Part shown: in pieces, positions 1-38,580 of the stretch
How positions within the stretch are numbered: the stretch's first letter is position 1
Layout of the letters: the number at the start of each line of letters is the position of its first letter
NCBI GenBank assembly: GCA_963775725.1
Contig: CAVZKA010000001.1
Span: 740,309 to 804,308 of the forward strand
DNA from: an uncultured Acidobacteriota bacterium
Lineage (GTDB): Bacteria > Acidobacteriota > Thermoanaerobaculia > UBA5066 > Gp7-AA6
Length of the DNA stretch: 64,000 bases
Direction of reading: 5' to 3'
Program-made: the position numbers and the translations under genes
Notes under the pieces: generated by a model
Database searches by the model: none
What the model was told of the DNA's origin: nothing
What the model saw: the letters and a program-made list of their open reading frames with translations, nothing else

Positions 1-432
1 CATCTTCATCATCGCCTCGAAGGCCCGCTTCGCCTCCGCGCCGCCGGCAGAGAACGCGTCGGTCAAGGCACGAGGGGTGATTTGCCACGAGAGACCCCAG
101 CGGTCCTTGCACCAGCCGCAGTCGCTCTCCTTGCCGCCGTTGCCGACGATGGCGTTCCAGTAACGGTCGGTCTCTTCCTGGTCGTCGGTTGCGATCTGGA
201 AGGAGAACGCCTCGGTCTGCTTGAAGTGCGGCCCGCCATTCAGGCCGATGCAGGGAATGCCGAAGACCGTGAACTCGACGGTGAGGACGTCGCCCTTTTT
301 GCCGCTCGGGTAGTCGGCCGGCGACTGGTGAACGGCCTTGACCTGGCTGTCCGGAAACGTCGCGGCGTAGAAGGTCGCGGCCTCGAGCGCGTCCTTGTCG
401 TACCAGAGGCAGATGGTGTTCTTTGGCGTCAT
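1..432 (-). CDS. VOC-superfamily protein with a PhnB / 3-demethylubiquinone-9 3-methyltransferase-like domain; C-terminus runs off the window
   Basis: My own reverse-strand translation from the ATG at ~430-432 reads MTPKNTICLWYDKDALEAATFYAATFPDSQV...GKKGDVLTVEFTVFGIPCIGLNGGPHFKQTEAFSFQIATDDQEETDRYWNAIVGNGGKESDCGWCKDRWGLSWQITPRAL. It is absent from the ORF track because it is truncated at the window edge. Confidence 0.7.
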   Translation of the reverse strand, partial: MTPKNTICLWYDKDALEAATFYAATFPDSQVKAVHQSPADYPSGKKGDVLTVEFTVFGIPCIGLNGGPHFKQTEAFSFQIATDDQEETDRYWNAIVGNGGKESDCGWCKDRWGLSWQITPRALTDAFSAGGAEAKRAFEAMMKM

Positions 433-616
433 CGTCGCTGCTCCTTGCTTTGGTCGCTTGCGGTCTGCTCGAGCGGCAGGAATCCCTCACCGCGCGACCA
501 TGCTCCCCCACTCTTTTCGGTGCAAGCCGGATGCCGACGCCGGGGGCAATCCCGGGATTTTCGTGGCCGCCCGCTGATTTTGCCGGCCGGAAAGGTGCGC
601 GGCGAATGTCGACGCG

Positions 617-1093
617 CTATTTCGCCTCCACCGGAAGCGGCGTCCGTGAATACATCCCGACCGGATGTCCGGCCGGGTCGATGACGAGGCCGACTGCGCC
701 CCTCCCGTCGGAGAGATTGAACGGGAATCCCGGAGGAATCATGCCGCCGAGCTCCTTCGCCCTCGAGCAGCTCGCGGGCATGTCCTTGACCTGGATATAG
801 ACCACGCCGTCATAGGGGCTGATCTTGCCCTCGGCGACGCGCAGCGTTCCGACGGGCTTGCCGCCGGAGACGATTTCCAGCGCGAGATTCTCGCCTCCGG
901 GCACCGAGGTGTACTCCCACCCGAAGAGGCCGGCGTAGAACGCCTTCGACTGGGCGAGGTTACTCGTCGTGATGTCGAACCACGCCACGCGGCCGTCTCC
1001 GACATCCGGCTTGGGCCCCTTGTTCTGTGCGGCCGCGGAGCCGCAGGTCATCAGGGCGAGAGCGATTCCGGTCGCGATGAGTCTTGCGCGCAT
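617..1093 (-). CDS. Secreted VOC/glyoxalase-fold protein
   Basis: Taken from the internal Met of track ORF 617..1207. MRARLIATGIALALMTCGSAAAQ is a signal peptide, followed by a glyoxalase-like segment AWFDITTSNLAQSKAFYAGLFGWEY...GKPVG. Confidence 0.6.
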   Translation of the reverse strand: MRARLIATGIALALMTCGSAAAQNKGPKPDVGDGRVAWFDITTSNLAQSKAFYAGLFGWEYTSVPGGENLALEIVSGGKPVGTLRVAEGKISPYDGVVYIQVKDMPASCSRAKELGGMIPPGFPFNLSDGRGAVGLVIDPAGHPVGMYSRTPLPVEAK

Positions 1094-1361
1094 GTGTCCT
1101 CCCGAAGTTGCGACAACGGTACCAAAAGTCGGGAGCGCCCAGGAGTGCGCCGGGGGCCCGTCCCGTGTGTGGTCGACTATGAGACATACGTTGGAGGTGT
1201 GCCCCATGCGAAGGACCCTTGCCCCGTTCGCGTCACTTGCAGCATGAACACCTTCCGGGGCCGGTCATGCTCCCGCGCTGCTGCTCGCCCGGCAGGAAAT
1301 ACGTCCGCGAACGCGACCCGTCGGTCGAAGGCGTGCGCGCCGGGTTGTCCGTACGACGCGT

Positions 1362-1853
1362 CAGTCGAACCAGTACTCCAGCGTTCCGTCGGATCCTTTT
1401 CCGAAACTGCCCTCGAAGCCGCCCTCTCCACGCAGACCGGCGAGCTCCGCTGTTCCCGATCCGGGGACGACCGACCACTTCGCCGTGATCCTGCCGTTCG
1501 CGACGACTTCGGAGCCCTGAAGCACGAACGTTCCCAGGCGCCCGGCCAGTGTTTCCGCGGAATCGCTGCATGCTGACGAGGATGGCAGACTTGTCGTCGC
1601 GCTGGACCTGGAGAGCGCGGACGGTCGACTCGCCCTCCAGATCGCCCGTGAACGTTTCCTTCAAATAGAGCTCCATCAAGGCCGGCCTCGCGGTCTCGTC
1701 GTACGGCTTGGCCTCGGAACTCTGAACGGTGATCCTGGCTTTGGCTTTGGAGCGCGCAGGAGGCTTCGCGTTCACTGGTCTGCCCGGGGTGCCGGCGGTC
1801 TGCGAGGCGCCGAGAAGCACGAGGGCGAATGCGGCCGTGGTCGGGAAGCTCAT
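1362..1853 (-). pseudogene. DUF3224-family secreted protein interrupted by a frameshift
   Basis: The N-terminal 95 aa (MSFPTTAAFALVLLGASQTAG...AKPYDETARPALMELYLKETFTGDLEGESTVRALQVQRDDKSAILVSMQ) lie in the frame of track ORF 1233..1982. A typical DUF3224 C-terminus (...GRLGTFVLQGSEVVANGRITAKWSVVPGSGTAELAGLRGEGGFEGSFGKGSDGTLEYWFD*) appears in the +1 frame after ~1565 and ends with a stop at ~1362. Confidence 0.5.
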
Positions 1854-1974
1854 GGGGTTCCTCCCTCCGATTTCGATGGGGCCTGCGGGCCCCGTCCGTG
1901 GACCTGCAAGACAGAGGCCCACCGCGCGACGGAGGCTCCGAGAAGGGGGAGGCCTGGCTTCTTTCGGCGACGCG

Positions 1975-2475
1975 CTACGCACGCCGAGCCGGCTGCGGCA
2001 CGAACCGGCTCATCGCGAGCGAGATGGGCAGGCCGACGCAGGTCATGTGGACGAGCAGGGGCACGGGCCAGATCTCTGGCAGCGGCCGTTTCGGGGCGTT
2101 CGCGATGTAGAGGGGGCGCAGCGCGGAAAGTACCGGAATGACGCCGCGGTACATGACGAGCAGCCAGAAGACGCCGAAGAGGATCCCGCCGAGGACGGGC
2201 CACTCCAGCATCGCGGGCCAGCGGCGGCTCGCGAGGTAGAAGACGAGAGTGGCAGAGAGGGCCACGAGGAAGTGCATGGCGAGGCCGAGGATCGCGGTCG
2301 GCACGCCCATCTCGAAGCTCCGCGGGCCGAGGACGGAAGCGGCTATGCCCTGGAGCATGCGCATGGGCTTGCCCCCGCTCGTGATCGAGATGACGACCGC
2401 CGAGGTGATGTCGAGGATGCCGCAGGCGAGCCAGGCCCAGAGGATGGCGCGGCGGACGGACGGACTCATGGTCAT
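1975..2475 (-). CDS. Hypothetical polytopic membrane protein (about 4 TM segments)
   Basis: Track ORF. Hydrophobic segments AILWAWLACGILDITSAVVISI, VPTAILGLAMHFLVALSATLVFYL, LGGILFGVFWLLVMY and WPVPLLVHMTCVGLPISLA. No recognisable enzymatic motif. Confidence 0.5.
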   Translation of the reverse strand: MTMSPSVRRAILWAWLACGILDITSAVVISITSGGKPMRMLQGIAASVLGPRSFEMGVPTAILGLAMHFLVALSATLVFYLASRRWPAMLEWPVLGGILFGVFWLLVMYRGVIPVLSALRPLYIANAPKRPLPEIWPVPLLVHMTCVGLPISLAMSRFVPQPARRA

Positions 2476-2671
2476 CTTCTGGGATCTTTTGAGCTGGAGC
2501 TGGGGGTCAGTCCTGAGTTGTTGACTTACCGCGGGGCGCGGAGCAGAGCGTCGGCCCCGAGATCAACAGATTGGCCCGCCGGCTTGGTGATCGCACCGCT
2601 CAACGCCTCGACTCCCCATGGAACCTGGGAGTCGGCCATGAAGGCGGCCTCGTCGGTCTGTTCGCCCATGA

Positions 2672-3385
2672 CTAGTTCGGCCAGTTCAGGCCGAGCGCCT
2701 TCGCGAGGAAGACGGCCATCTGTCCGCGCGTCACCGGGCTGTCAGGACAGTAGGACCCGCTCCCGCAGCCGCCGGTGATCCCCGACGCCGCGAGGGCCTC
2801 GATGAACTGGTAGAACGGATGCGACGTGGCCACGTCGTTGAACGTCGGTGTGGCGGGCGCAGGGCTGACCTGGAGTCGGTAGCCGAGCACCGCGGTCGTC
2901 GCGGCGGCAGTCGACCCGTCAGCCACGAAGCCGATCTCCAGGAACAAGCGCCGGTTCACGTTGTCGACCACGTAGCCAGCCAGGGCCTTCGTGACGGTCT
3001 GGCAGCCGTCGTCCTGGGAGGCGATCGAGTCGATCAGGGTGAGCGCCCCGCACCCTCCGGCGGCGGCGTCGCAGTCGGCGAGGATCAGCGAGACGTCGTG
3101 GTTTGGAGCGACGTCGTCGTCGCAATACTGGAACTGCATGGAGGTGATGACGGCTCCCGTCGGCAGGCGCGGGTTCGTCACGAACAGCCCGTTGCCGGAG
3201 AGGGCGATCCAGCGGTCGTTGAAGATCTGGCCGTTGGAGATGGGATTGAAGTCGGACGGCTCGAACCGGACGTACGTCGTGTTCGTCGTGCCGTAGGCGG
3301 AGGGGGCCGGACCCTCGGCCGACGCGACGGCCGAGGCCGCGACGAGGGCCGTCAGGACGGCGAGAGCCCGAGGGAATCTGCGCAT
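2672..3385 (-). CDS. Secreted protein with an SLH-like C-terminal domain (paralog A)
   Basis: Signal peptide MRRFPRALAVLTALVAASAVASA. The C-terminus TFNDVATSHPFYQFIEALAASGITGGCGSGSYCPDSPVTRGQMAVFLAKALGL fits the SLH pattern F-DV...F..IE.L...GI..G......P...VTR...A.FL. The N-terminal domain is of unknown family. A paralog lies at 8500..9219. Confidence 0.6.
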   Translation of the reverse strand: MRRFPRALAVLTALVAASAVASAEGPAPSAYGTTNTTYVRFEPSDFNPISNGQIFNDRWIALSGNGLFVTNPRLPTGAVITSMQFQYCDDDVAPNHDVSLILADCDAAAGGCGALTLIDSIASQDDGCQTVTKALAGYVVDNVNRRLFLEIGFVADGSTAAATTAVLGYRLQVSPAPATPTFNDVATSHPFYQFIEALAASGITGGCGSGSYCPDSPVTRGQMAVFLAKALGLNWPN

Positions 3386-3439
3386 GGACGGGACCTCCTC
3401 GCCCGAGTATAGGGCAGCGAAAGAAGATCGCCCGCGCCG

Positions 3440-3931
3440 CTACTTCGCCGCCGGCTTCGCGTTTCTCGGGTCGTCGGCCGGATTCACGTACTTGAACTCG
3501 ATCGGCCCCTGTCCGAAGAGCACGATGTCCGCCCCGGCTTTGCCCGCGAACGCGTAGTGGTTCATCCCGGTCGGCATCATCGCGAAGCCGCCGACGTGGA
3601 GCGCCTTGTTCTCCTTCGCGGTCTTCGACAGCTTGTCGCCCATGCCGAAGGTCAGGGAGCCGGCGGTGACGACGACGTTCTCGTCGGTCGGATGAGAGTG
3701 CGCGGGAATGGCGTAGTTGGCCGGCATCCGGATCCGAACGGCGTAGGCGCCGGCGGCCATGGGATTTCCCGAGAGAACCGCGAGCTGCGCCCCCGGGGGC
3801 AGCATCGGCGGAGCGGGTCCCCACTTGGCGTCGTTGACCGCGCTGATGACCTGCGAGGGGGACTGCGCGAACAGAGACGTGGCGAAGACGGAAGCGAGCA
3901 CGACGAGGGTCCAGGTCGAAAGCTTCTTCAT
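3440..3931 (-). CDS. Secreted cupin-domain protein
   Basis: Signal peptide MKKLSTWTLVVLASVFATSLFAQ. Cupin-like core PAHSHPTDENVVVTAGSLTFGMGD...HVGGFAMMPTGMNHYA. Confidence 0.7.
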   Translation of the reverse strand: MKKLSTWTLVVLASVFATSLFAQSPSQVISAVNDAKWGPAPPMLPPGAQLAVLSGNPMAAGAYAVRIRMPANYAIPAHSHPTDENVVVTAGSLTFGMGDKLSKTAKENKALHVGGFAMMPTGMNHYAFAGKAGADIVLFGQGPIEFKYVNPADDPRNAKPAAK

Positions 3932-4221
3932 GGCGTTCTCCTTCGCCGCGAATTCTATTCAAGAGTCGAAGGGAGCGTCACTCCTGATTTGCCGACTCGT
4001 GGGGGTCTTTCCGCGCCAATCGGGGCGATTGTCCCGGGTCATCCCGTTGGCCAACGGGCATTGCCGGAATTCTGGGGGGCCGGCCCGGGAATTTCTCGCC
4101 CCACGTCCGACATCTAGAAAATGTGCGGCCGGCTCCGGCGAATGCCGGCGGCAGGCGCTTCCGAGATCTTCTCAGCGCCGGTCCGCGCGAACACAAACCT
4201 GGTGGATCGAGGAGGTGTTCC

Positions 4222-4737
4222 ATGGATCAGAGGATCGACTACAACAACGTCACGCCCGGGGCCCTGCAGGCGATGCTGGGCCTCGAGAAGTACCTGAGCC
4301 AGAAGGCGGATCGGAAGCTGCTCAACCTGGTCTATCTGCGCGCATCGCAGATCAACGGCTGTGCGTTCTGCATCGACATGCACTGGAAAGACCTGCGCGC
4401 GCAGGGCGAGAGCGAGCAACGGCTGTACGGCCTGGACGCGTGGTCCGAGTCTCCCTACTACAGCGACCGGGAGCGTGCCGCGCTGGCCTGGACCGAAGCG
4501 GTGACCCGCCTGACAGAAGGGCACGTGCCCGACGAGGTGTTCGAACAGGCCCGCCGTTTCTTCTCCGAGGCGGAGCTCGCCGACCTGACACTGGGTGTCG
4601 TGGCGATCAACGGTTGGAACCGGCTGAACATCGCATTTCGGACGCCCGCGGGAGGCTACCAACCGACCGCGAGGAAGGTGCTCCCGACGCCCCAGGATTC
4701 GGAAGGCCGCGCGCCGCGGCCGCAAGCCGCCCACTGA
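4222..4737 (+). CDS. Carboxymuconolactone decarboxylase (AhpD-like) family protein
   Basis: Trimmed to the Met at MDQRIDYNNVTPGALQAML, with GGAGG ~10 nt upstream. The family motif ASQINGCAFCIDMHWKD is present. Confidence 0.75.
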   Translation: MDQRIDYNNVTPGALQAMLGLEKYLSQKADRKLLNLVYLRASQINGCAFCIDMHWKDLRAQGESEQRLYGLDAWSESPYYSDRERAALAWTEAVTRLTEGHVPDEVFEQARRFFSEAELADLTLGVVAINGWNRLNIAFRTPAGGYQPTARKVLPTPQDSEGRAPRPQAAH

Positions 4738-4896
4738 GGCATCCGGGACAGGGGCCAGTCCTGGGATCGTCTCGGGGCTGACCCCTGAGCTTCGCCGGCC
4801 CTGCGGAAGGTGGGCAAGGATGGACTCCCGTTCAGCCCCGCCCGCGGATCTTCATGTCCACCAGCTCGTCGATCGACACGTCCTTCTGCCGCGCCT

Positions 4897-6060
4897 TCAG
4901 CCCCTCTTGCGCCCCGCCAGCCGCCAGAACTGCGTCTCGTTCAGCAGCGTGATCCGGTGGCCCTTCTCGCGCAGGCGCTTGATCTCGAGCAGCTTCCTGC
5001 CCGCGTCCTTGCCGGCCGCCTGGAGCGGATTGGGCTTGCCCCGGACGACGACGGTCGTCTTCGCGGAGGGCGAGCCGTGGATCTTCGCACCGGCGCGGCG
5101 CGCGGCCCGGGCGGCTTCGATGCGGGGACGGCTGAGGATTCCGGTGAACGCGAGGTGCGCGCCCTTGAGCGTGCGCAGGCGTCCGACCTTGAGGGCCGCA
5201 GGCGGGTGGGTGAGCGCGTCGATCAGTTCCTGCGCGCTCTCGTAGCGCTTGCGGCGCTCGCCGATGCAGCGATAGACGATCTCCTTCAGGTGGTCGGTGC
5301 AGCGCAGGCCCCGCACCTCGCCCGTCCGGATCCGGGCGGCCGCGCTGCCCTTCACGAGCATTCCGAGCAGCTGCCCGACCTGGTAGACGTCGTCGCGCGC
5401 CTGCCACTTGGGGGCGAGTCCGGAGAGGATGTCGCTCGGGACGCCCCACGGGTTCAGCGTGCGCGCGGCGACGCCGCGGCGGTCGCTCTGGTGGCTGACG
5501 ATGCCGAAGTCTCCGAGCTTGAGTGAAACGCCGTCGCAGACGAAGACGTTCATCGGCGTCAGGTCCCGGTGGAGGAGCTGGCCCCGGTGGAGCTTGCCGA
5601 GCACCTCGAGAATGCCGGCGATCTCGCGCCGCGCGGTCCGCTCGGTCCAGCTCTTGCCCGTGCGATCGAGGTAGGCGCGCAGGTCGCCGTGCTTCGCGTA
5701 CTCGAGCGCGAGGCAGTAGAGGACGCTGCCGTCCTCCCGGATCAACGGAAACGCGTCGAAGACGCGGATCGCGCGGGCGTGGCCCGCGAGGAGCTGCCCG
5801 AAATAGGCTTCCTTCAACCAGCCGTCGATGTGCTCGCTCGCCTTGATCGCGACGGCCGCCGGGACCGAGAGGGAGCGCGTCACCCGCGTCGCCAGGTACG
5901 CCTGGCCGAAGCCACCTTGGCCGAGCAGGCTGTCGATCCGGTAGCGCAGGCGCGTCTCGGGACTCGCGATGACCTGCTGCGGGAGCAGCAGGGCCTTGCC
6001 CCGCGCCGCGCGGGTGGCGGCGGACATCCCGAGAGTCGTGGCTCTGGTATCTACGGTCAT
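4897..6060 (-). CDS. Ser/Thr protein kinase with a C-terminal BRCT domain
   Basis: This is the C-terminal 387 aa of track ORF 4897..7359. Kinase motifs: LGQGGFGQAYLA (G-loop), VAIKAS (Lys), HRDLTPMNVFV (catalytic loop), KLGDFG, DVYQVGQLL. The last ~90 aa (LKGAHLAFTGILSRPRIEAARAARRAGAKIHGSPSAKTTVVVRGKPN...GHRITLLNETQFWRLA) resemble a LigA-type BRCT domain. The ORF upstream of 6060 is low-complexity and antisense to a real plus-strand gene. Confidence 0.7.
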   Translation of the reverse strand: MTVDTRATTLGMSAATRAARGKALLLPQQVIASPETRLRYRIDSLLGQGGFGQAYLATRVTRSLSVPAAVAIKASEHIDGWLKEAYFGQLLAGHARAIRVFDAFPLIREDGSVLYCLALEYAKHGDLRAYLDRTGKSWTERTARREIAGILEVLGKLHRGQLLHRDLTPMNVFVCDGVSLKLGDFGIVSHQSDRRGVAARTLNPWGVPSDILSGLAPKWQARDDVYQVGQLLGMLVKGSAAARIRTGEVRGLRCTDHLKEIVYRCIGERRKRYESAQELIDALTHPPAALKVGRLRTLKGAHLAFTGILSRPRIEAARAARRAGAKIHGSPSAKTTVVVRGKPNPLQAAGKDAGRKLLEIKRLREKGHRITLLNETQFWRLAGRKRG

Positions 6061-6144
6061 CGGAAGAGATTCCGCGAGGAGTCTACTGCGGGGTCGCCCC
6101 GGCGTTTCGACGGGCGCAGTAGGATTTGCCGGACGAGGTGACGC

Positions 6145-6876
6145 ATGTCGCAACGGCTCCCATCCCGGATCGCGCTCCTGGCTCTCGCCGCTGCCTTTCC
6201 GGCATGGGCACGCGCGGAAGACCTCCGCGACGTGCTGAAGCGGCAGACGCAGGAGCTCGCCGACGCGGTCGGGACCGGAACGTCGGCGGTGTGGGACGAG
6301 TACCTGGACGCCGGCGTCCTCTTCGTCGACGAGAGCGGCACGGTCGCGACGAAGAAGGAGATGGTCGAACAGCTGAGACCCCTGCCCGAAGGCGTCTCCG
6401 GGTCGATCGCGGTGACCGACTTCGTGGTCGCGGACCACGGCGACGTCGCGGCGACGACGTACGTCGAGGACGAGCACGAGAACTACCATGGGCACGCGCT
6501 CCACTGTCAGTACCGGGCGACGGACGCGTGGAAGCAGACGCCGGCCGGATGGCGGCTGATCGCGAGCCAGGTGCTGGCGCTGCGCACGGACCCGCCGGCG
6601 ATCGCGCTGCGGGTCGCGACGCTCGAGGGCTATTGCGGGAAGTACGCGCTGACGCCGGCGATCGCGTACGAGATCCGCCGCAAGGGCGACGGGCTCGAGG
6701 GGCAGCAGACCGGGCGCAAGCCCGAGACGCTCCTCGTCGAGGCGCCGGACGTCCTGTTCGTGCCGGGCAAGCCGCGTTACCGATATGTCCTCCTGCGCGA
6801 CGCGGCGGGAAAGATCACGGGGATGGCGCAGAGGCGCGAAGCGTGGGACCTGGTCTGGAAGCGGGAGAGCTCGTAG
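6145..6876 (+). CDS. Secreted NTF2-like (SnoaL/DUF4440-type) protein
   Basis: Signal peptide MSQRLPSRIALLALAAAFPAWARA. NTF2-like core AVWDEYLDAGVLFVDESG...YRATDAWKQTPAGWRLIASQV. The C-terminal extension is of unknown function. Confidence 0.6.
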   Translation: MSQRLPSRIALLALAAAFPAWARAEDLRDVLKRQTQELADAVGTGTSAVWDEYLDAGVLFVDESGTVATKKEMVEQLRPLPEGVSGSIAVTDFVVADHGDVAATTYVEDEHENYHGHALHCQYRATDAWKQTPAGWRLIASQVLALRTDPPAIALRVATLEGYCGKYALTPAIAYEIRRKGDGLEGQQTGRKPETLLVEAPDVLFVPGKPRYRYVLLRDAAGKITGMAQRREAWDLVWKRESS

Positions 6877-6887
6877 GAGTCGGGCCG

Positions 6888-7900
6888 TGAAGCCCCGTCG
6901 GATCTTTCCCCTGCGCCGCTCGGCCATCGCCCTGCGCAGAGACCGGGAGGGCGAGAGCCCGCGCACGATCGTCATCGCGCTGATCGCCAACCTCGTCATC
7001 GGCGTCGCGAAGCTGCTCGCGGGGCTCGCCTCGGGGTCGACCGCGCTGATCGCCGAGGCCGCGCACTCGGGGGCCGATTGCGTCAACGAGGTATTTCTCG
7101 CGATCGGGCTGTACCGGTCGCGGCAGCCGCCGGACCAGGTGCATCCGTTCGGGCATGCGCGGGAGCAGTTCCTCTGGGCGTTCATGGCGGCGATCGCGTC
7201 GTTTCTGTTGGGTGGGTGCCTCTCGATCGGTATCGCGGTCCGGGAGCTCGAGTCGCGCGGCCACCCGGTCGTCGGGGGACTCGCGCCGTGGATCGTTCTC
7301 GCGGTCGCGTTCGCGGCGGACGGAGCGTCCTGGCTGCAGGCCATGAAGCAGGCGGGCAAGCAGGCGAAGGACTACGACCTGACGATCGGCCGCTACCTCG
7401 TGCGCGCGAGCGACCCCGTGGTGCGCGCTGTGCTCGTCGAGGACAGCGCGGCGCTCATCGGTCTCGTCCTCGCCGCGGCAGGCCTGTCACTGGCCCGGAT
7501 CACGGGCTCGAACACACCGGACTCCGTCGCGTCGCTGCTGATCGGGGTGCTGCTCGCCGTCACGGCGTTCTTCCTGGCCCGTCCGTTCGCCGATTTCCTG
7601 GTCGGACGCTCCATCGCCGCGCCGCAGCTCGAGCGGCTGCGGGCGATCGTCGAGGGCGACCCGGCGATCGAGGAGGTCTTCGTGCTCCAGGCGATGTACT
7701 CCGGGCCAGAGGAAGTGGTCGTCCTCGGCAAGGCCCGTCCCTCGCCGAGGCTCGGCATCGAAGAGCTCGGCCGCGCGATGGACGAGATCGACCGGAGGAT
7801 CCGGCAGGCGTTCCCGTTCGTCGCCGACGTGTTCATCGACGTGACGAGCGCGCCGGGCTCGGCGGCGCAGACTCCGCATGGCTCTTCAGAACCGCGTTGA
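6888..7900 (+). CDS. Cation diffusion facilitator (CDF) family transporter
   Basis: GTG start chosen downstream of AGGAG (~6874). Family motifs: IALIANLVIGVAKLLAGLASGSTALIAEAAHSGADCV and GHAREQF. Hydrophobic TM core plus a cytoplasmic C-terminal domain. Confidence 0.75.
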
Positions 7901-8606
7901 TCCCTGCGGAGCCCTGCGCTCGACGCCCGAGCGCGGGGCCTGGATGGGCAACCGCGGCGTGCTGCATGACGCGTCGCAGCGCGTCGTCGCGCAGTGGCGG
8001 CTGCAGCGATGGATCACGTGCGTCCTCTCGTGGAAGGGCCGGCGGCGCGAGGTCTTCGCTCCCAACCGGTGGAGCGAGCTGTTCTTCCTGGACGAGGCGA
8101 CCGCGCTCGCGGCGGGGCATCGGCCCTGCGCGGAGTGCCGGCGGCCGCGCTACCTGGAGTTTCGTGCCGCCTGGGAGGCGGGCCGGCGCGGGCGCGACGC
8201 GCGGTCCGGGTTTCTCCGGGCGGACGCGATCGATCGGGTCCTGCACGCGGAGCGGGTGGATCGCACGGGAAGAAAGAAGACGTACCGCGCGGCGCTGTCG
8301 TCGCTTCCCGACGGAACGATGGTGGAGCGCGCGGGCTCGCCGCACCTGGTCTGGCGCGGGAAGCTGCGGCGATGGAGCTTCGGCGGCTATGGTCCGGCAG
8401 TGGACGCCGCGCCCGATGAGGTCGTGGACGTCCTGACGCCGCGCTCGATCGTCGGCGCCATCCGGGCCGGATTCCTGCCGCAGGTCGATCCAGCCGGAAT
8501 CAGTTCGTCCAGTGCATCCCGAGCGCCTTCGCCAGGAACACGGCCATCTGCCGCCGCGTCAGCGGGGCGTCCGGGCAGTAGTTGCCGCCGCCGCAGCCCG
8601 CGGTGA
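7878..8606 (+). CDS. Hypothetical protein with a CxxC motif; boundaries uncertain
   Basis: Track ORF with balanced composition (WMGNRGVLHD...ELFFLDEATALAAGHRPCAECRRPRY). The motif ALAAG-RPC-C is reminiscent of an Ada-type metal-binding segment, but the match is weak. The 3' ~100 nt overlap the convergent gene 8500..9219, so the true stop is uncertain. Confidence 0.35.
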   Translation: MALQNRVDPCGALRSTPERGAWMGNRGVLHDASQRVVAQWRLQRWITCVLSWKGRRREVFAPNRWSELFFLDEATALAAGHRPCAECRRPRYLEFRAAWEAGRRGRDARSGFLRADAIDRVLHAERVDRTGRKKTYRAALSSLPDGTMVERAGSPHLVWRGKLRRWSFGGYGPAVDAAPDEVVDVLTPRSIVGAIRAGFLPQVDPAGISSSSASRAPSPGTRPSAAASAGRPGSSCRRRSPR

Positions 8607-9219
8607 CGCCCGAGGCCACGAGGGCCTCGATGAACTTGAAGCCGGGGTCGATGACGGACACGTCGTTGAAGGTCGCTACGACCGGCGGCGCGCTGACCTG
8701 GCGCCGCCAGTGGATCTGCACGGCGCCGAGACCCGCGTTGGCGTTGAGGGTGGCCCGCACCTGGTGAAACAGGTTCTCGCCGAGGTTGGCGTCGAAATGC
8801 CGGAACACGTAGGAAAACGGCGCCGTGCAGACCACGTCGTAGCCGGTGTCGTAGTCCGCGACGACGTTCGAGCCGGCGACTTCGTCTTCGCCGGTGAACT
8901 GGCCGCTGGCGGGAAGCAGGACCCGGTTGATCGCCGCGACCACCAGCGAGAACGGGTCCGGATCGTTGGCGTAGACGCAGACCTGGAAGATCTCCGCTCC
9001 GTCGGGAAGCTCGAGCGGCGCGACGTACAGCGCCGTCCCGTAGATGTACCCGCTGCCGTAGTTCGTGATCGCCCCGCTGACCAGCGGGCGAAAGGCGGCC
9101 GAGCTGAGCGTGAGGACCTGGTCTCCGAGGCCGTAGGCCTGCGACCGGGCGCTCGACGCGGCGGCGAGGGCGGCGAGGGCGAAGAGCGAAACGAGAAGCG
9201 CACGGCGGCGGGAGGGCAT
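8500..9219 (-). CDS. Secreted protein with an SLH-like C-terminal domain (paralog B)
   Basis: Start set at MPSRRRALLVSLFALAALAAASSARSQA (signal peptide), with AAGGAG ~7 nt upstream. The C-terminus TFNDVSVIDPGFKFIEALVASGVTAGCGGGNYCPDAPLTRRQMAVFLAKALGM is nearly identical in pattern to 2672..3385. Confidence 0.6.
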   Translation of the reverse strand: MPSRRRALLVSLFALAALAAASSARSQAYGLGDQVLTLSSAAFRPLVSGAITNYGSGYIYGTALYVAPLELPDGAEIFQVCVYANDPDPFSLVVAAINRVLLPASGQFTGEDEVAGSNVVADYDTGYDVVCTAPFSYVFRHFDANLGENLFHQVRATLNANAGLGAVQIHWRRQVSAPPVVATFNDVSVIDPGFKFIEALVASGVTAGCGGGNYCPDAPLTRRQMAVFLAKALGMHWTN

Positions 9220-9317
9220 GGAGGGCTCCTTTCCAGCCCATTGTGCGCCGGCCGGGGGCACGGCAGTTGTGATCTGTAGCTCTTGGGCGCCGGGTTTTTC
9301 GCCGGGAGGCCCTCCCC

Positions 9318-9716
9318 CTAGCGACCGGGCTCGGGAACGAGCGTCGGCTTGGACCGGGCCGATCCGGAGGCGCGCAGGCGCTGAAATTCCGACTCGAGCT
9401 GGCTAATCTCGGCTTCGGTCATTCCTTCGAGGCTGATCAATCCGTTGCGCGCGCCCTTCTGCGCGCGGATCAGCTCGTCGAGTTTCAGGGGCATCGCCTT
9501 GGAGTCCCGGTTCTGCGCGTTCTGGACGAGAAAGATCATCAGGAACGTCGCCACCGTCGTCCCGGTGTTGATCACGAGCTGCCAGGTCTCCGAGTAATGA
9601 AAGAACGGGCCCGAGACAGCCCAAACGACGCAGAGCAGGGTCGCGGCCGCAAAGGCCCAGGGGGAGCCCATCGCCGTGGACGCGCGATGGGCGATCTTGC
9701 GGAAGAAGTCGTTCAT
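9318..9716 (-). CDS. Small membrane protein of the low-affinity iron permease (Fet4-like) family
   Basis: C-terminal 132 aa of track ORF 9318..11003, starting MNDFFRKIAH with GGAGAAA upstream. The motif QLVINTGTTVATFLMIFLVQNAQNRDSKAMPLKLDELI is characteristic of the family. The rest of the long ORF is antisense to the FAD monooxygenase gene. Confidence 0.55.
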   Translation of the reverse strand: MNDFFRKIAHRASTAMGSPWAFAAATLLCVVWAVSGPFFHYSETWQLVINTGTTVATFLMIFLVQNAQNRDSKAMPLKLDELIRAQKGARNGLISLEGMTEAEISQLESEFQRLRASGSARSKPTLVPEPGR

Positions 9717-9878
9717 GTCTGCTATTTCTCCCCGGACTCCGCATTTGCAGTTTTCGTGCCGTAGCTGGCCGGGGTTGTGCAGAGGCCCGGTGGCGACCGG
9801 AGAATGATCGAGTCCATGCGCGGCGACTCCTACGGGGCGGCGTACCAGATCAGGAGGTTTTTTGATAAAGAAAGCGCC

Positions 9879-11345
9879 ATGGCGGGCGGCGCTGGAGACA
9901 CCGATGTCCTGATCGTCGGCGCGGGGCCGGTCGGGCTCTTCCTCGCCAACGAGTGCGCGCGCCGCGGCCTTCGATACCGGATCGTCGAGACGCACGCGAC
10001 GCAATCGGAGCACTCCAAGGCGCTCGCCATCTTTCCGCGGACCCTCGAGATCTTCGACATGGCGGGCGTCGCCGGTCCGTTCCTCGAAAAAGCGAACCGC
10101 GCGACGCGTGTCGCCATCGTGGCGCACCAGCGCGGCCTCGCGCACATCCGGTTCGCGCCGGAGGAGACCCCCTACCGCTTCATCGCCATGGTTCCCCAGG
10201 ACGTCACCGAGAAGCTCCTCGCCGCAGAGCTGGGCCGTCGGGGCGGCGGCGTCGAGTACGAGACCGCGTTCGTGTCGGCGGTCGAGCGCGATGGCCGCGT
10301 GAGCGCCGTGCTCGATCACGGGGGCCGGCGCGAGGAGCTCACCGCCGCGTTCGTGGTCGGCTGCGACGGCGCGCACAGCACGATACGGCACCTCCTGAGC
10401 CTGCCGTTCGAGGGTGCCGCGTACGAAGCCCTGTTCATGCTGGCCGACATCCAGACCAACGAGGCCCTCCCCGCCGACGAGCTGCAGCTGTGCCCGAGCG
10501 AGCACGGTCCCGCCGCCATCTTTCCCATGAGCGCGACGCGGCGGCGCGTCGTCGCGACGGTCGATGCCGCCGAGGGCGACGCGCCCTCGCTCGAGCTCGT
10601 GCGCAGAGTCCTGGCCGAGCGCGGGCCCGCGGGAGTCGAAGCGCGGGCCCTCCACTGGAGCAGCTACTTCCGCATTCATCACCGGCGCGCCGGGCAGCTG
10701 CGCGTCGGGCGGATGTTCATCGCCGGCGACGCCGCGCACATCCACAGCCCGTTCGGAGGCCAGGGGATGAACACCGGGCTGCACGACGCCTGGAACCTCG
10801 CCTGGAAGCTCGACCTCGCGCTGCGCGGCCGGGGCAACGAGACGCTGCTCGGCAGCTACGCCGCCGAGCGTCTTCCGGTGATTCGCCACGTCATCGAGAC
10901 GACGCATCGCCTGACGAAGGCGATGGGGACGGCGAGCCGGCTGGCGCAAACCGTGCGCGACGCCGTGATCCCCGTCGTGTCCCGCCTGTCGCCCTTTCAG
11001 CACGCCTTCGTGCAGACGCTCTCGGGCCTGGGGATCGCCTATCGCGGAAGCCCGATCGTCGAGGGGTCCGGCGAGCGGTACTTCGACGACGGGCTGCGCG
11101 GCGGAGCGGGCATTCGGAGCCGGTTTCTGCTCGTCGTCGGCGACGCGGCGGATCCGGGCCCCGGGGCGCGGCAGGCCGCGGCGCGGCTGGCCGGGTCGCT
11201 TCCCGACGTCGTCGAGGTCCGGCCGGGCCCGGGCTCCGGGATCCGGCTCGTCCGGCCCGACGGATACCTGGCGTATTCCGCGCCCGACGCGGACGCAAGC
11301 AGCGTGAACGCCGTGCGTTCACTTCTGGAGCGGCAGACGAAGTAG
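9879..11345 (+). CDS. FAD-dependent aromatic-ring monooxygenase (PheA/TfdB/UbiH family)
   Basis: Trimmed to MAGGAGDTDVLIVGAGPVGLFLANECARRG, the dinucleotide-binding GxGxxG motif. The second FAD motif GRMFIAGDAAHIHSPFGGQGMNTGLHDAWNLAWKL is present. ~490 aa. Confidence 0.8.
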   Translation: MAGGAGDTDVLIVGAGPVGLFLANECARRGLRYRIVETHATQSEHSKALAIFPRTLEIFDMAGVAGPFLEKANRATRVAIVAHQRGLAHIRFAPEETPYRFIAMVPQDVTEKLLAAELGRRGGGVEYETAFVSAVERDGRVSAVLDHGGRREELTAAFVVGCDGAHSTIRHLLSLPFEGAAYEALFMLADIQTNEALPADELQLCPSEHGPAAIFPMSATRRRVVATVDAAEGDAPSLELVRRVLAERGPAGVEARALHWSSYFRIHHRRAGQLRVGRMFIAGDAAHIHSPFGGQGMNTGLHDAWNLAWKLDLALRGRGNETLLGSYAAERLPVIRHVIETTHRLTKAMGTASRLAQTVRDAVIPVVSRLSPFQHAFVQTLSGLGIAYRGSPIVEGSGERYFDDGLRGGAGIRSRFLLVVGDAADPGPGARQAAARLAGSLPDVVEVRPGPGSGIRLVRPDGYLAYSAPDADASSVNAVRSLLERQTK

Positions 11346-11448
11346 AAGGAGCGAAACCGATGCGTTTCTTCAGGCTCGCTCTCGTCGCTGCATTGGTGCT
11401 CGCGCCCGGGCGACTGCTGCTGGCGCAGGCCCGGGGAAAAGGGGTCCC

Positions 11449-12306
11449 GTGACCGCGTACCGCACGATCCAGATCGATGGCCTGTCCATCTTCTACAGGG
11501 AGGCGGGCCCGAAGGACGCGCCGACGATCCTCCTGCTGCACGGCCTGCCGAGCGCCTCGCGGCAGTTCGAGCCGCTCTTGACGCGCCTCTCGGACCACTA
11601 TCACCTCGTCGCCCCCGACTTCCCGGGCTTCGGGCACAGCGACTGGCCGGATCCGAAGAAGTTCGCGTATACCTTCGACCACATCGCCGAGATCATGAAT
11701 CGCTTCACCGAGGCGCTCGGACTGAAGCGCTCCACGCTGTACATGCACGACTACGGCGGTCCGGTGGGCTTTCGGATGGCGCTCGCGCATCCCGACCGGG
11801 TGGAGGCGCTGATCGTCCAGGATGCCGTGGCGCACGACGAGGGCTTGGGCCCGAACTGGAAGGCCCGGCGAGCCTTCTGGGCCGATCGCGCCGCCAACGA
11901 AGCCCTGCTGCGCACGAACCTCCTGTCGCTCGCGGCGACGAAGACCCGCCACGTCGGCAGCGACCCCAACGTCGAGCGCTACGACCCGGATCTCTGGACC
12001 GACGAGTTCGCGTTCCTGAGCCAGCCCGCGCAGGGCGACATCCAGGCCGACCTCTTCTACGACTACCGCACGAACGTGGAGGCTTACCCGAAGTGGCAGG
12101 CCTGGATGCGAGAGAAGCAGCCGCGGCTGCTCGTCCTCTGGGGCAGGTACGACCTCTCCTTCGAGCTGACGGAACCGGAGGCCTACCGGAGAGACGTGCC
12201 GAAGGCAGAGGTCCACGTGCTCGACGCGGGACATTTCGCGCTCGACGTGGCGCCGGACGAGATCGCGGAGATCGTCCGCGCGTTCATGCAGGGCGGCGCG
12301 CGGTGA
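11449..12306 (+). CDS. Alpha/beta hydrolase (epoxide-hydrolase/haloalkane-dehalogenase-like)
   Basis: GTG start. LLLHGLPSASRQFEPL matches the HG oxyanion motif, and YMHDYGGPVG is the nucleophile elbow with Asp in place of Ser. The C-terminal HFALD supplies the catalytic His. Confidence 0.8.
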   Translation: MTAYRTIQIDGLSIFYREAGPKDAPTILLLHGLPSASRQFEPLLTRLSDHYHLVAPDFPGFGHSDWPDPKKFAYTFDHIAEIMNRFTEALGLKRSTLYMHDYGGPVGFRMALAHPDRVEALIVQDAVAHDEGLGPNWKARRAFWADRAANEALLRTNLLSLAATKTRHVGSDPNVERYDPDLWTDEFAFLSQPAQGDIQADLFYDYRTNVEAYPKWQAWMREKQPRLLVLWGRYDLSFELTEPEAYRRDVPKAEVHVLDAGHFALDVAPDEIAEIVRAFMQGGAR

Positions 12307-17329: not shown

Positions 17330-17661
17330 GCAAACCGGCCGACCTCGTCCAGGGCACCCTGGACCTGCTTCTGCTGAAAATCCTGGCGCTCGAGCCGCTG
17401 CACGGGTGGGCCATCAGCCTTCGCCTGAGGTCGCTTTCCTCCGATGTGCTGCAGGTCAGCGAAGGGTCTCTCTACCCGGCGCTGCACAAGCTCGAGCAGG
17501 AGGGCTGGATCAAGGCCGAGTGGAAGCAGACCGAGAACAACCGGCGCGCAAAGTTCTACTCGCTCACGGCGCTGGGACGAAAAGAGCTCGAATCGGAGGC
17601 GGCGAACTGGAAGCGGCTGTCGACGGCCATCTCGCACGTCGTGCAACTGGCAGAAGCGTAG
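17326..17661 (+). CDS. PadR-family transcriptional regulator
   Basis: Internal Met of track ORF 17152..17661. The sequence LLLLKILALEPLHGWAISLRLRSLSSDVLQVSEGSLYPALHKLEQEGWIKAEW is a canonical PadR winged helix. Confidence 0.8.
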   Translation: MSKPADLVQGTLDLLLLKILALEPLHGWAISLRLRSLSSDVLQVSEGSLYPALHKLEQEGWIKAEWKQTENNRRAKFYSLTALGRKELESEAANWKRLSTAISHVVQLAEA

Positions 17662-17665
17662 GGCC

Positions 17666-20371
17666 ATGCGCATCGCACACTGGTGGTACACGGCGCCGCT
17701 GCGGTTGAAGTCGATCTTCCGCCGCCACCGGGTCGAGAACGAGCTCGACGAGGAGCTGCAGTTTCACCTCGATCACAAGATCGAGGAGGGCATCGCCGAG
17801 GGCCTCTCGCCGGAAGAGGCGCGGTATCGCGCGCTGCGCGCCATGGGCGGGCTCGATCAGAAGAAGGAAGAGATCCGCGACGCGCGGCGCGTCCACTGGC
17901 TGACGGACTTCCTGGACGACGTGCGCTACGCCGTGCGGAGCCTGCGTCGTACGCCCGGACTGACGGCGCTCGTGGTCGTCACGATCGCGCTCGGAATCGG
18001 GATGACGTCGACGCCTCTGAGCATGCTCGATGCGCTGATCTTCCGGCCGTACCCGGTGCCGCACCCGGGCGACGTGGTCACGCTCGTGAGCACGTCCCGC
18101 GACAACGGATTCGAGCCCTTCTCCTACCGCGAGTACCTCGACATCCGCGACCGGGCGAAGAGCTACGACGGCGTGATCGCGAACGCGCCGATCTCGACCG
18201 TCGGCTTCAGCGCCGAGCGCGACGCCACGCCCCTCGTCCGCGGCGGCATGCTGGTCTCCGGCAACTTCTTCCGCGTGCTCGGCGTCGAGCCGGCGGTCGG
18301 CCGCGGCTTCCGGCCGGACGAGGACGAGGCGCCCGGCCGCGACGCGGTCGTGGTCCTCTCGTGGGACTTCTGGCAGCTCGAGTTCGCGGGCGCCGGTTCG
18401 GCCGTCGGCCGGGTCGTGCGCCTGAACGGAAAAGAGTTCACGATCATCGGCGTGGCGCCGGAGACGTTCACCGGGCTGTATATCTTCGACCGCCCCGACC
18501 TCTACATTCCCCTCGCGATGGCGCGCGTGTTCTCGCCGGGCGCGACGAAGGACTTCTTCACGGATCGCGACGACCGCGGCCTGATGGTGCGGGGGCGCCT
18601 CGCGCGGGGGGCGACGCTGCGGCAGGCGCGGAACGAGCTCTCCGTGGTGGCGCGGGATTTCGAGCGCGAGTATCCGAAGGTGAACCGCGAGCGCGGCGCG
18701 GCCGTGCGCACGATGTTCCAGATGCGGACGCAGGACGCCGACCTCAACTGGAAGTTCAGCGTGATCTTCACGACGCTGGCGCTCGCCGTGCTGCTGGTCG
18801 CGTGCACGAACGCCGCCGGGCTCCTGCTCTCCCGCTCCCGGACGCGGACCCGGGAGATCGCCATACGGCTGGCGATCGGGGCGGGGCGCTTCCGGCTGAT
18901 CCGGCTTCTCCTGACGGAGAGCCTGGTGCTCGCGCTCGTCGGCGGCCTGGGCGGGATCGCGGTCGGATACCTGGGCATCCGCGCCATGCAGACCTTCTCC
19001 ATTCCGGCCGAGCTGCCGGTCAAGGTGCCATTCCGGATGGACGGGCGCATGCTCCTGGTCAGCCTCGTGCTGTCGGTTCTCTCCGCGCTCTTCTGCGGCC
19101 TCGCGCCGGCGCTGCAGAGCACGCACACGAACCTGGTGAGGGGCTTGAAGGCGACCGCCGGCGAGGAGTCCGGCGGAGGGCGCAGGCGCCTGTGGGGCCG
19201 GAACGCCCTCGTGGTGGCGCAGATCGCCATGTCGATGATGCTGCTGGCGGCCTGCTTCCTGATGGTCCGGGGGTTTCAGCACAGCATCGGGGAAGGCCCC
19301 GGCTATGCGACGGATCACCTGCTGATGGTCCGGTTCGACCCGCGCCTCGTGCAGTACGACGCGGCGAAGACGGAGCGCTTCTACGAGCAGCTGGCCGCGC
19401 GCGTTCGAGAGGCGCCGGGCGTCGTGAGCGCGGGATTCACCCGGAACCCTCCGCGCGCCCTGGGAGATTTCGACCGCGTGGCGTTCGTGCCGGAGGCGTT
19501 CCAGATGCCGCGCGACCGCCGCAGCCTGACGTCGACGATGGACACCGTCGACGAAGGGTTTTTCGAGACGATGGGCGTCCCGATCCTGCGCGGCCGCGGC
19601 TTCCGCGCGTCCGACACGGCGGCCGCGCCGCGGGTGGCCGTCGTCAACGAGCAGTTCGGCAAGCATTACTGGCCGGGCGCCGATCCGGTGGGCAAGCGCA
19701 TCCGGCTGGAAGGCGCGAATGGCGAACCGGTCGAGATCGTCGGCGTCGCCCGCACGATCAAGTACCGCGACGGGCCCAGCCACAGGGACGAGGATTTCGT
19801 CTACCTGCCGCTCGCGCAGCACCCCGTCGCGCGCATGGTCCTCCTGTTGAAGTCGAGCGGCGACCCGCTGCAGTTGGTCGGCCCCGTCAAGACGATCGTC
19901 CGCGCGCTCGACGCGAACATGCCGATGCTCGAGACGAGGACGTACGAGGACCTCTACCGCTACGGCACCGTGGAGGGGCCGCGCGTCGCCGTCCTGCTCG
20001 TCGGCACGATCGGCGCGGTGGGCCTTCTGCTCGCGATCGCCGGCCTGTACGGTCTCGTCGCGTACAACGTCAGCCGCCGGACGCGCGAGATCGGCATCCG
20101 CATCGCGATCGGCGCGACGCCCCGCGACGTCGTCCGCCTGATGATGGGCAAGGGCCTCGTTCTCGTCGGCGCCGGAGCGGCGATCGGCCTGGCGATGGGT
20201 ATCGGCCTCGAGCGATTCATGAACTCGATGCTGTTCGACGCGGGCGGAGTCGACCTCGTCGTCTACCTCGTCGTCGTGCCGGGGATGCTGCTGGTCACGA
20301 TGCTGGCCGCCTATCTCCCCGCGCGGCGCGCGACCCGGATCCCGCCGACCCTCGCGCTGCGCTGCGAATAG
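17666..20371 (+). CDS. ADOP-type duplicated FtsX/MacB-like ABC transporter permease
   Basis: From MRIAHWWYTAPLRLKSIFRR inside track ORF 17444..20371, ~900 aa. Two FtsX halves are present, each with 4 TM segments, and the protein directly follows a PadR gene (the Acidobacteria-type ADOP arrangement). Antisense ORFs 17564..19822 and 17683..20379 are spurious. Confidence 0.8.
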   Translation: MRIAHWWYTAPLRLKSIFRRHRVENELDEELQFHLDHKIEEGIAEGLSPEEARYRALRAMGGLDQKKEEIRDARRVHWLTDFLDDVRYAVRSLRRTPGLTALVVVTIALGIGMTSTPLSMLDALIFRPYPVPHPGDVVTLVSTSRDNGFEPFSYREYLDIRDRAKSYDGVIANAPISTVGFSAERDATPLVRGGMLVSGNFFRVLGVEPAVGRGFRPDEDEAPGRDAVVVLSWDFWQLEFAGAGSAVGRVVRLNGKEFTIIGVAPETFTGLYIFDRPDLYIPLAMARVFSPGATKDFFTDRDDRGLMVRGRLARGATLRQARNELSVVARDFEREYPKVNRERGAAVRTMFQMRTQDADLNWKFSVIFTTLALAVLLVACTNAAGLLLSRSRTRTREIAIRLAIGAGRFRLIRLLLTESLVLALVGGLGGIAVGYLGIRAMQTFSIPAELPVKVPFRMDGRMLLVSLVLSVLSALFCGLAPALQSTHTNLVRGLKATAGEESGGGRRRLWGRNALVVAQIAMSMMLLAACFLMVRGFQHSIGEGPGYATDHLLMVRFDPRLVQYDAAKTERFYEQLAARVREAPGVVSAGFTRNPPRALGDFDRVAFVPEAFQMPRDRRSLTSTMDTVDEGFFETMGVPILRGRGFRASDTAAAPRVAVVNEQFGKHYWPGADPVGKRIRLEGANGEPVEIVGVARTIKYRDGPSHRDEDFVYLPLAQHPVARMVLLLKSSGDPLQLVGPVKTIVRALDANMPMLETRTYEDLYRYGTVEGPRVAVLLVGTIGAVGLLLAIAGLYGLVAYNVSRRTREIGIRIAIGATPRDVVRLMMGKGLVLVGAGAAIGLAMGIGLERFMNSMLFDAGGVDLVVYLVVVPGMLLVTMLAAYLPARRATRIPPTLALRCE

Positions 20372-38408: not shown

Positions 38409-38580
38409 TGGACGGATGCTCCTTTCTCCGGACGCCGGTCCGATTTCCCCGGGCGTCCCTAGTCAACCCTAATAACGAGCCGGGAGGGTCGGAAGATTAC
38501 CCGCCCGGAACCTTTTCCGGCCGCCGCCGTCAAGGGGAATGACGGGCCACGGGATCGGTGCGTCCGAAAAGGGGGTGGAC

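Follow-up and report, generated by a model that had tools for sequence, protein, structure and literature searches.

The window analyzed in this study (the whole 64-kb stretch of contig CAVZKA010000001.1, from an uncultured bacterium of the Thermoanaerobaculia, Acidobacteriota) carries on its minus strand two open reading frames (ORFs), designated genes A and B. A sequence-only reading of this DNA had described their products as secreted paralogs of unknown function ending in a module similar to the S-layer homology (SLH) domain. Both ORFs were found to be present, and each encodes a protein composed of a signal peptide, a jelly-roll head and a single C-terminal SLH domain (Table 1). The signal peptides, MRRFPRALAVLTALVAASAVASA in A and MPSRRRALLVSLFALAALAAASSARS in B, are typical of the Sec type: the n-region bears positive charge, the core is hydrophobic and the end resembles A-x-A. 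This agrees with the earlier description of the products as secreted paralogs of unknown function. In the AlphaFold2 model of A, the signal-peptide region has a predicted local distance difference test (pLDDT) score below 50. The product of gene A is identical to database protein P0001, and an alternative GTG start of gene B is located at position 9261.

BLASTP comparison of the two proteins (E=1e-33, 38% identity over 202 aa) indicates that A and B are homologous over essentially their whole mature length, beyond the C-terminus. The N-terminal parts, which had been considered only loosely alignable and had been assigned to different domains, are therefore true homologs belonging to one jelly-roll family. 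The description of the C-terminal modules as near-identical was overstated, since 66% of the residues are identical over the last 67 aa (38/55, or 69%, in the 55-aa core, as counted here). At the DNA level the modules share 76% identity, with synonymous divergence (dS) of approximately 0.5, and therefore recent duplication or gene conversion was ruled out as the source of their similarity.

The probability that the two ORFs, or their likeness, are chance products of a GC-rich genome is negligible. Many spurious long ORFs on other frames do overlap A and B, and the window has a GC content of 69%; however, the GC content at the third and second codon positions of both genes (GC3 0.92, GC2 0.50–0.53) follows the pattern of real genes. 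This reading is refuted by the homology of A and B to each other, by matches to curated Pfam profiles, by thousands of homologs with conserved architecture and by the confidently predicted fold.

Table 1. Coordinates of genes A and B, of their predicted parts and of other genes mentioned in the text (positions in the window).
Feature	Position	Strand	Description	Basis
Gene A	2672..3385	-	237 aa; signal peptide, jelly-roll head and single C-terminal SLH domain	ORF list
A, signal peptide	3317..3385	-	Sec-type; residues 1-23; A-S-A cleavage motif at end	Direct reading of sequence
A, head	2861..3286	-	Beta-jelly-roll; residues 34-175; four Cys; motif LPxGA..(x)..YCD	
A, SLH domain	2714..2845	-	Residues 181-224 (Pfam span); core helix to about residue 233	PF00395 positions 1-44, Sap SLH1 alignment, model helices
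A, Cys loop	2747..2767	-	Cys207-x5-Cys213, CGSGSYC; presumed disulfide	Cys invariance and Sap SLH1 alignment
A, TRGQ motif	2720..2731	-	Counterpart of the SLH 'TRAE' ligand-binding motif; Arg220 = SLH-Arg43	
Gene B	8500..9219	-	239 aa from ATG; three-part architecture as in A	ORF list
B, signal peptide	9142..9219	-	Sec-type; residues 1-26	Direct reading of sequence
B, head	8686..9138	-	Jelly-roll; residues 28-178; two Cys	26% identity to A head (pairwise alignment)
B, SLH domain	8542..8673	-	Residues 183-226	PF00395 profile positions 1-44
B, Cys loop	8575-8595	-	CGGGNYC	Translation
B, TRRQ motif	8548-8559	-	TRRQ	Translation
MacB_PCD/FtsX permease (two), sortilin/BNR-repeat and PilZ-domain genes	17444-20371, 38539-41034, 41760-44885, 25352-26170	+		

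The C-terminal SLH domain and the jelly-roll head

The C-terminal module is almost certainly a genuine SLH domain, as the earlier reading had proposed. The Pfam profile PF00395 (gathering cut-off 20.8 bits) matched A with 39.7 bits and B with 31.0 bits, in each case over profile positions 1–44 of 44. When a profile built from 59 family members was searched against PDB sequences, only SLH domains were matched (SbsB, Sap and the OmpM-type entries 8bz2, 8bys and 8bym). The module of A can be aligned with SLH1 of Sap without gaps: the FxDV motif is retained, GITGG (A) and GVTAG (B) stand in the place of GIIxG, and TRAE is represented by TRGQ and TRRQ, respectively. Residues G206, T219, R220 and Q222 are invariant in the 59 family sequences. 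G206 and R220 correspond to SLH-Gly29 and SLH-Arg43, which touch the pyruvylated sugar in SpaA and Sap and enable pyruvate-dependent ligand binding (Blackler et al., PMC6081394), and an E-to-Q change like that seen here also occurs in SLH3 of SpaA, which has TRAQ (PMC6081394). The monomer model of A places the SLH helices at residues 192–200 and 217–230.

Both A and B contain the GGCG..YCP cysteine pair and the T-R-x-Q motif. The two cysteines of the module (C-G-x-G-x-Y-C), invariant in all 59 family sequences, replace the N and E flanking the ‘DKGMF’ loop of Sap SLH1, with no insertion or deletion. The alignment thus identifies the pair, which had been taken for an addition to the SLH pattern, as a substitution around the short loop following SLH-Gly29. 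Since both cysteines are invariant, a disulfide closing this loop is likely. Other database matches of the module were dismissed: that to FimA-like_C (E=0.018) was weak and sub-threshold, and those to NEAT and LRR families of NCBIfam were sub-threshold and covered only the SLH part.

Structure prediction for the N-terminal part, which had been suggested as a check, was carried out with AlphaFold2 on a 59-sequence alignment. Residues 34–175 of A were modeled as an all-β sandwich, with pLDDT mostly above 90, having the β-jelly-roll fold of carbohydrate-binding modules (CBMs) of the CBM6/16/22/35/36 type. The head gave no match to any Pfam or CBM family even at E≤10, and the PDB search with the family profile matched the SLH part only. 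The systems closest to the head are the jelly-roll CBMs (CBM16, CBM22, CBM36, CBM6 and CBM35) and domain III of Cry toxins, with identity below 12%; the head differs from the CBMs in its own conserved motifs, namely Y-G-T (located just after the signal peptide), L-P-x-G-A, Y-C-D and V-D-N, and in its predicted disulfides. A further family motif, Y-x-L-Q-V-S-P-A-P, which includes the conserved Q-V-S-P-A-P linker, leads into the SLH domain. The number of cysteines in the head is usually two or four, which fits an oxidising, extracytoplasmic location.

A profile built from the heads of two sequences was searched against 1.84 billion cluster representatives and matched 99 proteins, most of them 220–270 aa long and combining a head with an SLH domain. 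Three proteins of about 500 aa (P0322, P0328 and P0330) contain three tandem jelly-roll heads and no SLH domain, indicating that the head also exists as an independent repeat module. One further match, to the 1,492-aa repeat protein P0374, was rejected as a likely spurious low-complexity hit.

The wider family, its triple-SLH relatives and CsaB-like enzymes

The two genes had been regarded as members of a small family. At E≤1e-3, a search with A as query retrieved over 2,690 protein clusters. Almost all of the matches listed are 225–270 aa long with one SLH domain, and the only two that carry a name are annotated as ‘S-layer homology domain-containing protein [Thermoanaerobaculia bacterium]’. 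When one genome per GTDB species was considered, at least 565 loci were found to encode a relative. The taxonomic range given below is that of the best 80 of these loci, from 35 assemblies. They are labeled Thermoanaerobaculia, Thermoanaerobaculum, Acidobacteria or Acidobacteriota, with the exception of two short contigs binned as Gemmatimonadales. Other genes of the window have orthologs in them with 63–83% identity, which points to an origin of the window in this clade. The paralogous family to which A and B belong is very large and essentially restricted to the Thermoanaerobaculia.

The retrieved loci (1.33 Mb) contain 233 copies of the module, and five to seven family genes may be arranged in tandem arrays with a spacing of approximately 750–900 bp. 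Among 102 members, the median pairwise identity is 71% for the SLH module and 24% for the head; family members have kept much the same anchor, while their heads have diverged. A Sec-type N-terminus was recognized in 87 of the 102 family ORFs and a lipobox-like motif in only two. The search for further paralogs suggested earlier gave none within the window (tblastn), and a third copy with a partial fourth just beyond its left edge. These lie 8–10 kb past that edge on the contig of a near-identical strain: a 249-aa paralog (L001:18672-19421, minus strand) and a partial SLH module (L001:20390-20452). A further paralog of 258 aa (P0107) is encoded on the same 1.9-Mb contig as A and B. Some chains (P0009, P0015, P0017, P0020 and P0038) consist of two [jelly-roll + SLH] units in tandem, which shows that such units are able to work side by side in one polypeptide.

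In addition, 17 ORFs of the retrieved loci contain two or three modules of the Cys subtype. In the ten that were scanned, the SLH repeats are located at the end of proteins with IPT/TIG, PKD, reprolysin-type metalloprotease, β-helix or cupredoxin parts, a layout identical to that of SLH-displayed exoproteins of Firmicutes. One of these proteins, P0082, comprises three Cys-SLH repeats and aligns over 97% of its length with the triple-SLH regions of Bacillus plasmid-encoded proteins (31–33% identity). Its AlphaFold2 model superimposes on 3PYW and 6CWC, and in comparisons with the PDB it matched only SLH trimers, with template modeling (TM) scores of 0.74/0.77 for 3PYW and 0.63–0.77 for SpaA entries. 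Judging from this model, the Cys subtype is a bona fide SLH domain that is predicted to form a three-pronged spindle. Since the same anchor, in triplicate, carries proteases and TIG/PKD proteins, we infer that SLH-based display is general in the Thermoanaerobaculia and that the single-SLH proteins make up one branch of it. Besides the intra-SLH pair, P0055, P0082 and P0086 have a second conserved cysteine pair (P-P-x-C ... D-V-x-C-P) in each inter-repeat linker.

Genes for CsaB-type pyruvyl transferases were sought with E. coli WcaK as a seed in the window and 81 loci. Only one real match was obtained, in locus L042 of an Acidobacteriota metagenome-assembled genome (MAG). It is a 1,927-aa ORF (L042:1099-6879, minus strand) whose N-terminal 400 residues match PF04230 (89 bits); the best NCBIfam match of this domain is TIGR03609 CsaB, with 168 bits (below the equivalog cut-off of 213), compared with only about 30 bits for WcaK. 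The ORF fuses the CsaB-like domain with GT1/GT4, GT2, second GT1 and methyltransferase domains and, to judge from these, amounts to a complete assembly line for glycan repeats within a single chain. Its start is separated by 258 bp from a seven-gene family array in divergent orientation.

Database searches were then performed with the L042 domain and with a 16-sequence profile. The closest stand-alone homolog of the domain is P0121 (locus L084). A divergently encoded UDP-GlcNAc 2-epimerase (Epimerase_2) adjoins it, and the cluster also contains a WecA/TagO-type Glycos_transf_4 protein, GT2 glycosyltransferases and Wzy_C. A 271-aa family member lies 5.5 kb from P0121, the whole L084 grouping falling within 7 kb. 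In P. alvei, UDP-GlcNAc 2-epimerase supplies the ManNAc of the wall polymer that CsaB pyruvylates (PMC11464976). CsaB-type enzymes are genetically linked to the family in this lineage, as seen in two related genomes. The next matches of the CsaB-like profile are the CsaB proteins of Firmicutes, Cyanobacteria and Vampirovibrio. In three other proteins (P0153, P0164 and P0282) a CsaB-type pyruvyl transferase is fused to Glyco_tran_WecG (TagA-like, PF03808), which would join a ManNAc transferase and the pyruvylating enzyme in one protein.

Proposed envelope anchoring and alternative explanations

We take as established how the proteins are built, that they contain genuine SLH domains, to which fold class the head belongs, how large the family is and which taxa it covers, and that a conserved anchor contrasts with a diversified head. 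From this we propose, with a probability of about 0.65, that exported jelly-roll heads are held on the envelope by an SLH spindle binding a pyruvylated glycan. Each protein has a Sec signal peptide for its export, and the mature chain comprises a disulfide-stabilised, CBM-like head of about 145 aa, the Q-V-S-P-A-P linker and one Cys-pair SLH domain. Three such domains, supplied by three chains of the same protein or perhaps by several paralogs, would pack into a three-pronged spindle, as in SlpA, OmpM and the endolysin LysBT1. Binding of the spindle to an envelope glycan would be non-covalent and would depend on two invariant residues, the Arg of TR(G/R)Q and the Gly of GxTxG. This glycan would most likely be a polymer with CsaB-pyruvylated ManNAc, although for the ligand taken separately we put the chances of a pyruvylated glycan only slightly above even. 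For the variable heads held in this way, the most plausible ligands would be carbohydrates or other extracellular molecules.

The proposed system resembles that of the SLH proteins of Firmicutes (Sap, EA1 and BSL of B. anthracis, SpaA and SlhA of P. alvei, SLH glycosidases) in the Pfam domain itself, in the motifs FxDV, GIIxG and TR-x-(E/Q), in the presence of genes for a CsaB-like protein and a UDP-GlcNAc 2-epimerase near family genes of relatives, and in the combination of one conserved anchor with many passenger domains. It differs in having one SLH domain per chain instead of three, in the Cys-x5-Cys flanking the loop after SLH-Gly29, in the replacement of SLH-Trp13 by Pro, in its undescribed jelly-roll passenger and in its host, a diderm of the Gracilicutes and not a monoderm. 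One SLH domain per polypeptide is also found in OmpM (Negativicutes), SlpA (Deinococcus/Thermus) and LysBT1 (Brevibacillus prophage), in which three chains supply the three prongs of a homotrimer; the trimer of the present family is predicted by analogy with these. As in LysBT1, the single SLH domain is located at the C-terminus of a small soluble protein. However, the family lacks the β-barrel and coiled-coil of OmpM and SlpA as well as the enzymatic domain of LysBT1, and it forms a massively expanded set of paralogs compared with one or a few genes in each of those systems.

Several observations weigh against the proposed anchoring. A protein that a diderm exports by the Sec route does not leave the periplasm without a further export step, and therefore “surface display” is an assumption. 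Sugar binding by the head is a guess from fold similarity alone (identity below 12%). The predicted structures of the anchor are less certain than that of the head, with pLDDT of only 61–83 for the SLH part of the A monomer and moderate confidence for the P0082 model (pLDDT 65, predicted TM score (pTM) 0.66), which was built from a four-sequence alignment. SLH-Trp13, the third ligand contact in SpaA, is replaced by Pro190 in A, which lines up with the Trp of Sap SLH1 (consensus S-H-P-F-F; I-D-P-G-F in B); in most members an aromatic residue follows this Pro, and the replacement is a subtype difference which does not exclude SLH membership. The search for csaB advised in the earlier reading had a divided outcome: a CsaB-like gene was found beside family members in two related genomes, but no pyruvyl transferase was detected in the window by the WcaK-seeded search or by Pfam annotation, and none of the CsaB-like proteins retrieved in the two database searches is located on the contig of this genome. 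Since there are only about 13 close CsaB-like clusters, compared with thousands of family clusters, it may be that many carriers lack CsaB or that the database covers these MAGs incompletely. The absence of csaB alone would not refute SLH identity, since the SLH domains of OmpM bind polyamine-modified peptidoglycan and function without CsaB.

The case of OmpM suggests another explanation, namely that the module is a true SLH domain with a ligand other than a CsaB-pyruvylated polymer, such as modified peptidoglycan (OmpM of Negativicutes binds the cadaverine- or putrescine-modified form) or another anionic envelope glycan, and that the proteins act in the periplasm. The scarcity of close CsaB-like proteins relative to the family, and the lack of any retrieved CsaB-like protein that could be assigned to this genome, are in line with such a ligand, as is the fact that CsaB is not required by OmpM-type domains. 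Moreover, the loss of SLH-Trp13 and the rebuilding of the loop beside SLH-Gly29 around the cysteine pair could alter specificity, and the proteins carry only a Sec signal, with no recognisable signal for export across the outer membrane. We nevertheless consider this explanation, the strongest of the alternatives, unlikely: neither the pyruvate-contacting Arg nor the flipping Gly varies in the family, and CsaB-like genes together with a ManNAc-supplying epimerase adjoin family genes in two related genomes, above random expectation for 1.3 Mb.

It is very unlikely that the main task of the module is oligomerisation, or stabilisation as a tail, with no anchoring role, producing soluble secreted or periplasmic lectin-like trimers; this alternative corresponds to the novel dimerisation domain considered in the earlier reading. 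The single SLH domain per chain and the lack of a conserved partner gene would be compatible with this, and LysBT1's one SLH domain is known to drive trimerisation and thermostability; however, that domain also mediates binding to the cell surface, the residues invariant in the family include ligand-binding ones besides those of helix packing, and the subtype also occurs in the classical triple form at the C-termini of enzymes, where oligomerisation is not needed. A function as tethers between the outer membrane and the wall, as in OmpM and SlpA, or as subunits of an S-layer lattice seems highly improbable. SLH domains perform both tasks in other phyla, and OmpM and SlpA are as a rule trimers with one SLH domain per chain. 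Such tethers, however, have an N-terminal SLH domain, a coiled-coil stalk and a C-terminal β-barrel porin, whereas A and B (237–239 aa) have a C-terminal SLH domain, no stalk or barrel, and otherwise a soluble-type β-sandwich of 145 aa. Furthermore, the several divergent paralogs per genome, some in tandem and with heads only 24% identical, are unlike a single abundant lattice or tether protein.

An extension of the anchoring model is that mixed trimers arise when paralogs, whose genes often lie in tandem arrays, associate by way of their single SLH domains, so that a combinatorial lectin repertoire would be the main cargo of a full SLH/pyruvylated-glycan display system in the envelope of a Gracilicutes diderm. 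Mixed trimers are conceivable because the paralogs hardly differ in the SLH domain, whereas their heads have only about 24% identity. One envelope polymer could then bear a wide range of three-headed binding units, but we regard this extension as distinctly unlikely.

SLH/CsaB anchoring is treated as a hallmark of the Terrabacteria. The combination was described as ‘practically absent in the Gracilicutes’ by Witwinowski et al., whose sampled Acidobacteria were all negative and included no Thermoanaerobaculia, in agreement with the sequence-only remark that it would be unusual in this lineage. In the literature library searched, SLH domains were not linked with Thermoanaerobaculia or with Acidobacteriota in any paper, nor was an S-layer described for Thermoanaerobaculum. 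The domain call itself is already known, since automated NCBI annotation names close relatives ‘S-layer homology domain-containing protein’; what is new is the lineage, how far the family has expanded, the Cys-pair subtype, which is present in single copy and has Trp13 replaced, and the undescribed jelly-roll passenger. Here, a class of the Gracilicutes has SLH proteins in both single and triple format, encoded at several loci and in tandem arrays per genome, and at least some genomes also have CsaB-like, epimerase and TagO-like clusters. If anchoring were confirmed, this would be a clear exception bearing on the spread of envelope-attachment systems, by ancient inheritance or horizontal transfer, and it would define a Cys-pair SLH subtype and an undescribed family of jelly-roll heads. 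For A and B themselves the practical outcome is modest: ‘S-layer homology domain-containing proteins’ is the correct label.

Surroundings of genes A and B

All-against-all clustering of 1,038 neighboring ORFs revealed no recurrent neighbor besides the family itself. The next clusters were Ser/Thr kinases (27 genes in 16 loci) and MacB/FtsX permeases, both widespread protein families whose counts, in our judgment and with no formal test applied, do not exceed chance; a conserved partner gene was therefore rejected. Neither A nor B is part of a conserved operon. A gene for a secreted Cupin_7 protein (window 3440-3931, minus strand) ends 54 bp upstream of A, and the only sigma-70-like site in region 2300-9600 (3952-3981, minus strand), the one promoter-like signal of an otherwise uninformative promoter and terminator scan, is located just upstream of it. 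A bicistron of the two genes is therefore possible; other loci do not share this arrangement. According to Pfam annotation, the rest of the window contains ordinary acidobacterial genes and no glycan cluster. Two paralogous MacB_PCD/FtsX permeases, a sortilin/BNR-repeat protein and a PilZ-domain protein (Table 1) represent common families unrelated to A and B.

The ENA contig L001 represents the near-identical strain mentioned above, with 99.3% identity to window positions 1-4898 and 97.3% to positions 4897-12306. It contains an extra 1,069 bp (L001:7421-8489), absent from the window at approximately 4897/4898, just downstream of a Ser/Thr kinase gene; this segment makes up most of a 353-aa ORF with no Pfam hit. 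The 820-aa ORF at window 4897-7359 (minus strand) overstates the gene, which on the sister contig is called as a 387-aa Pkinase ending at 4897.

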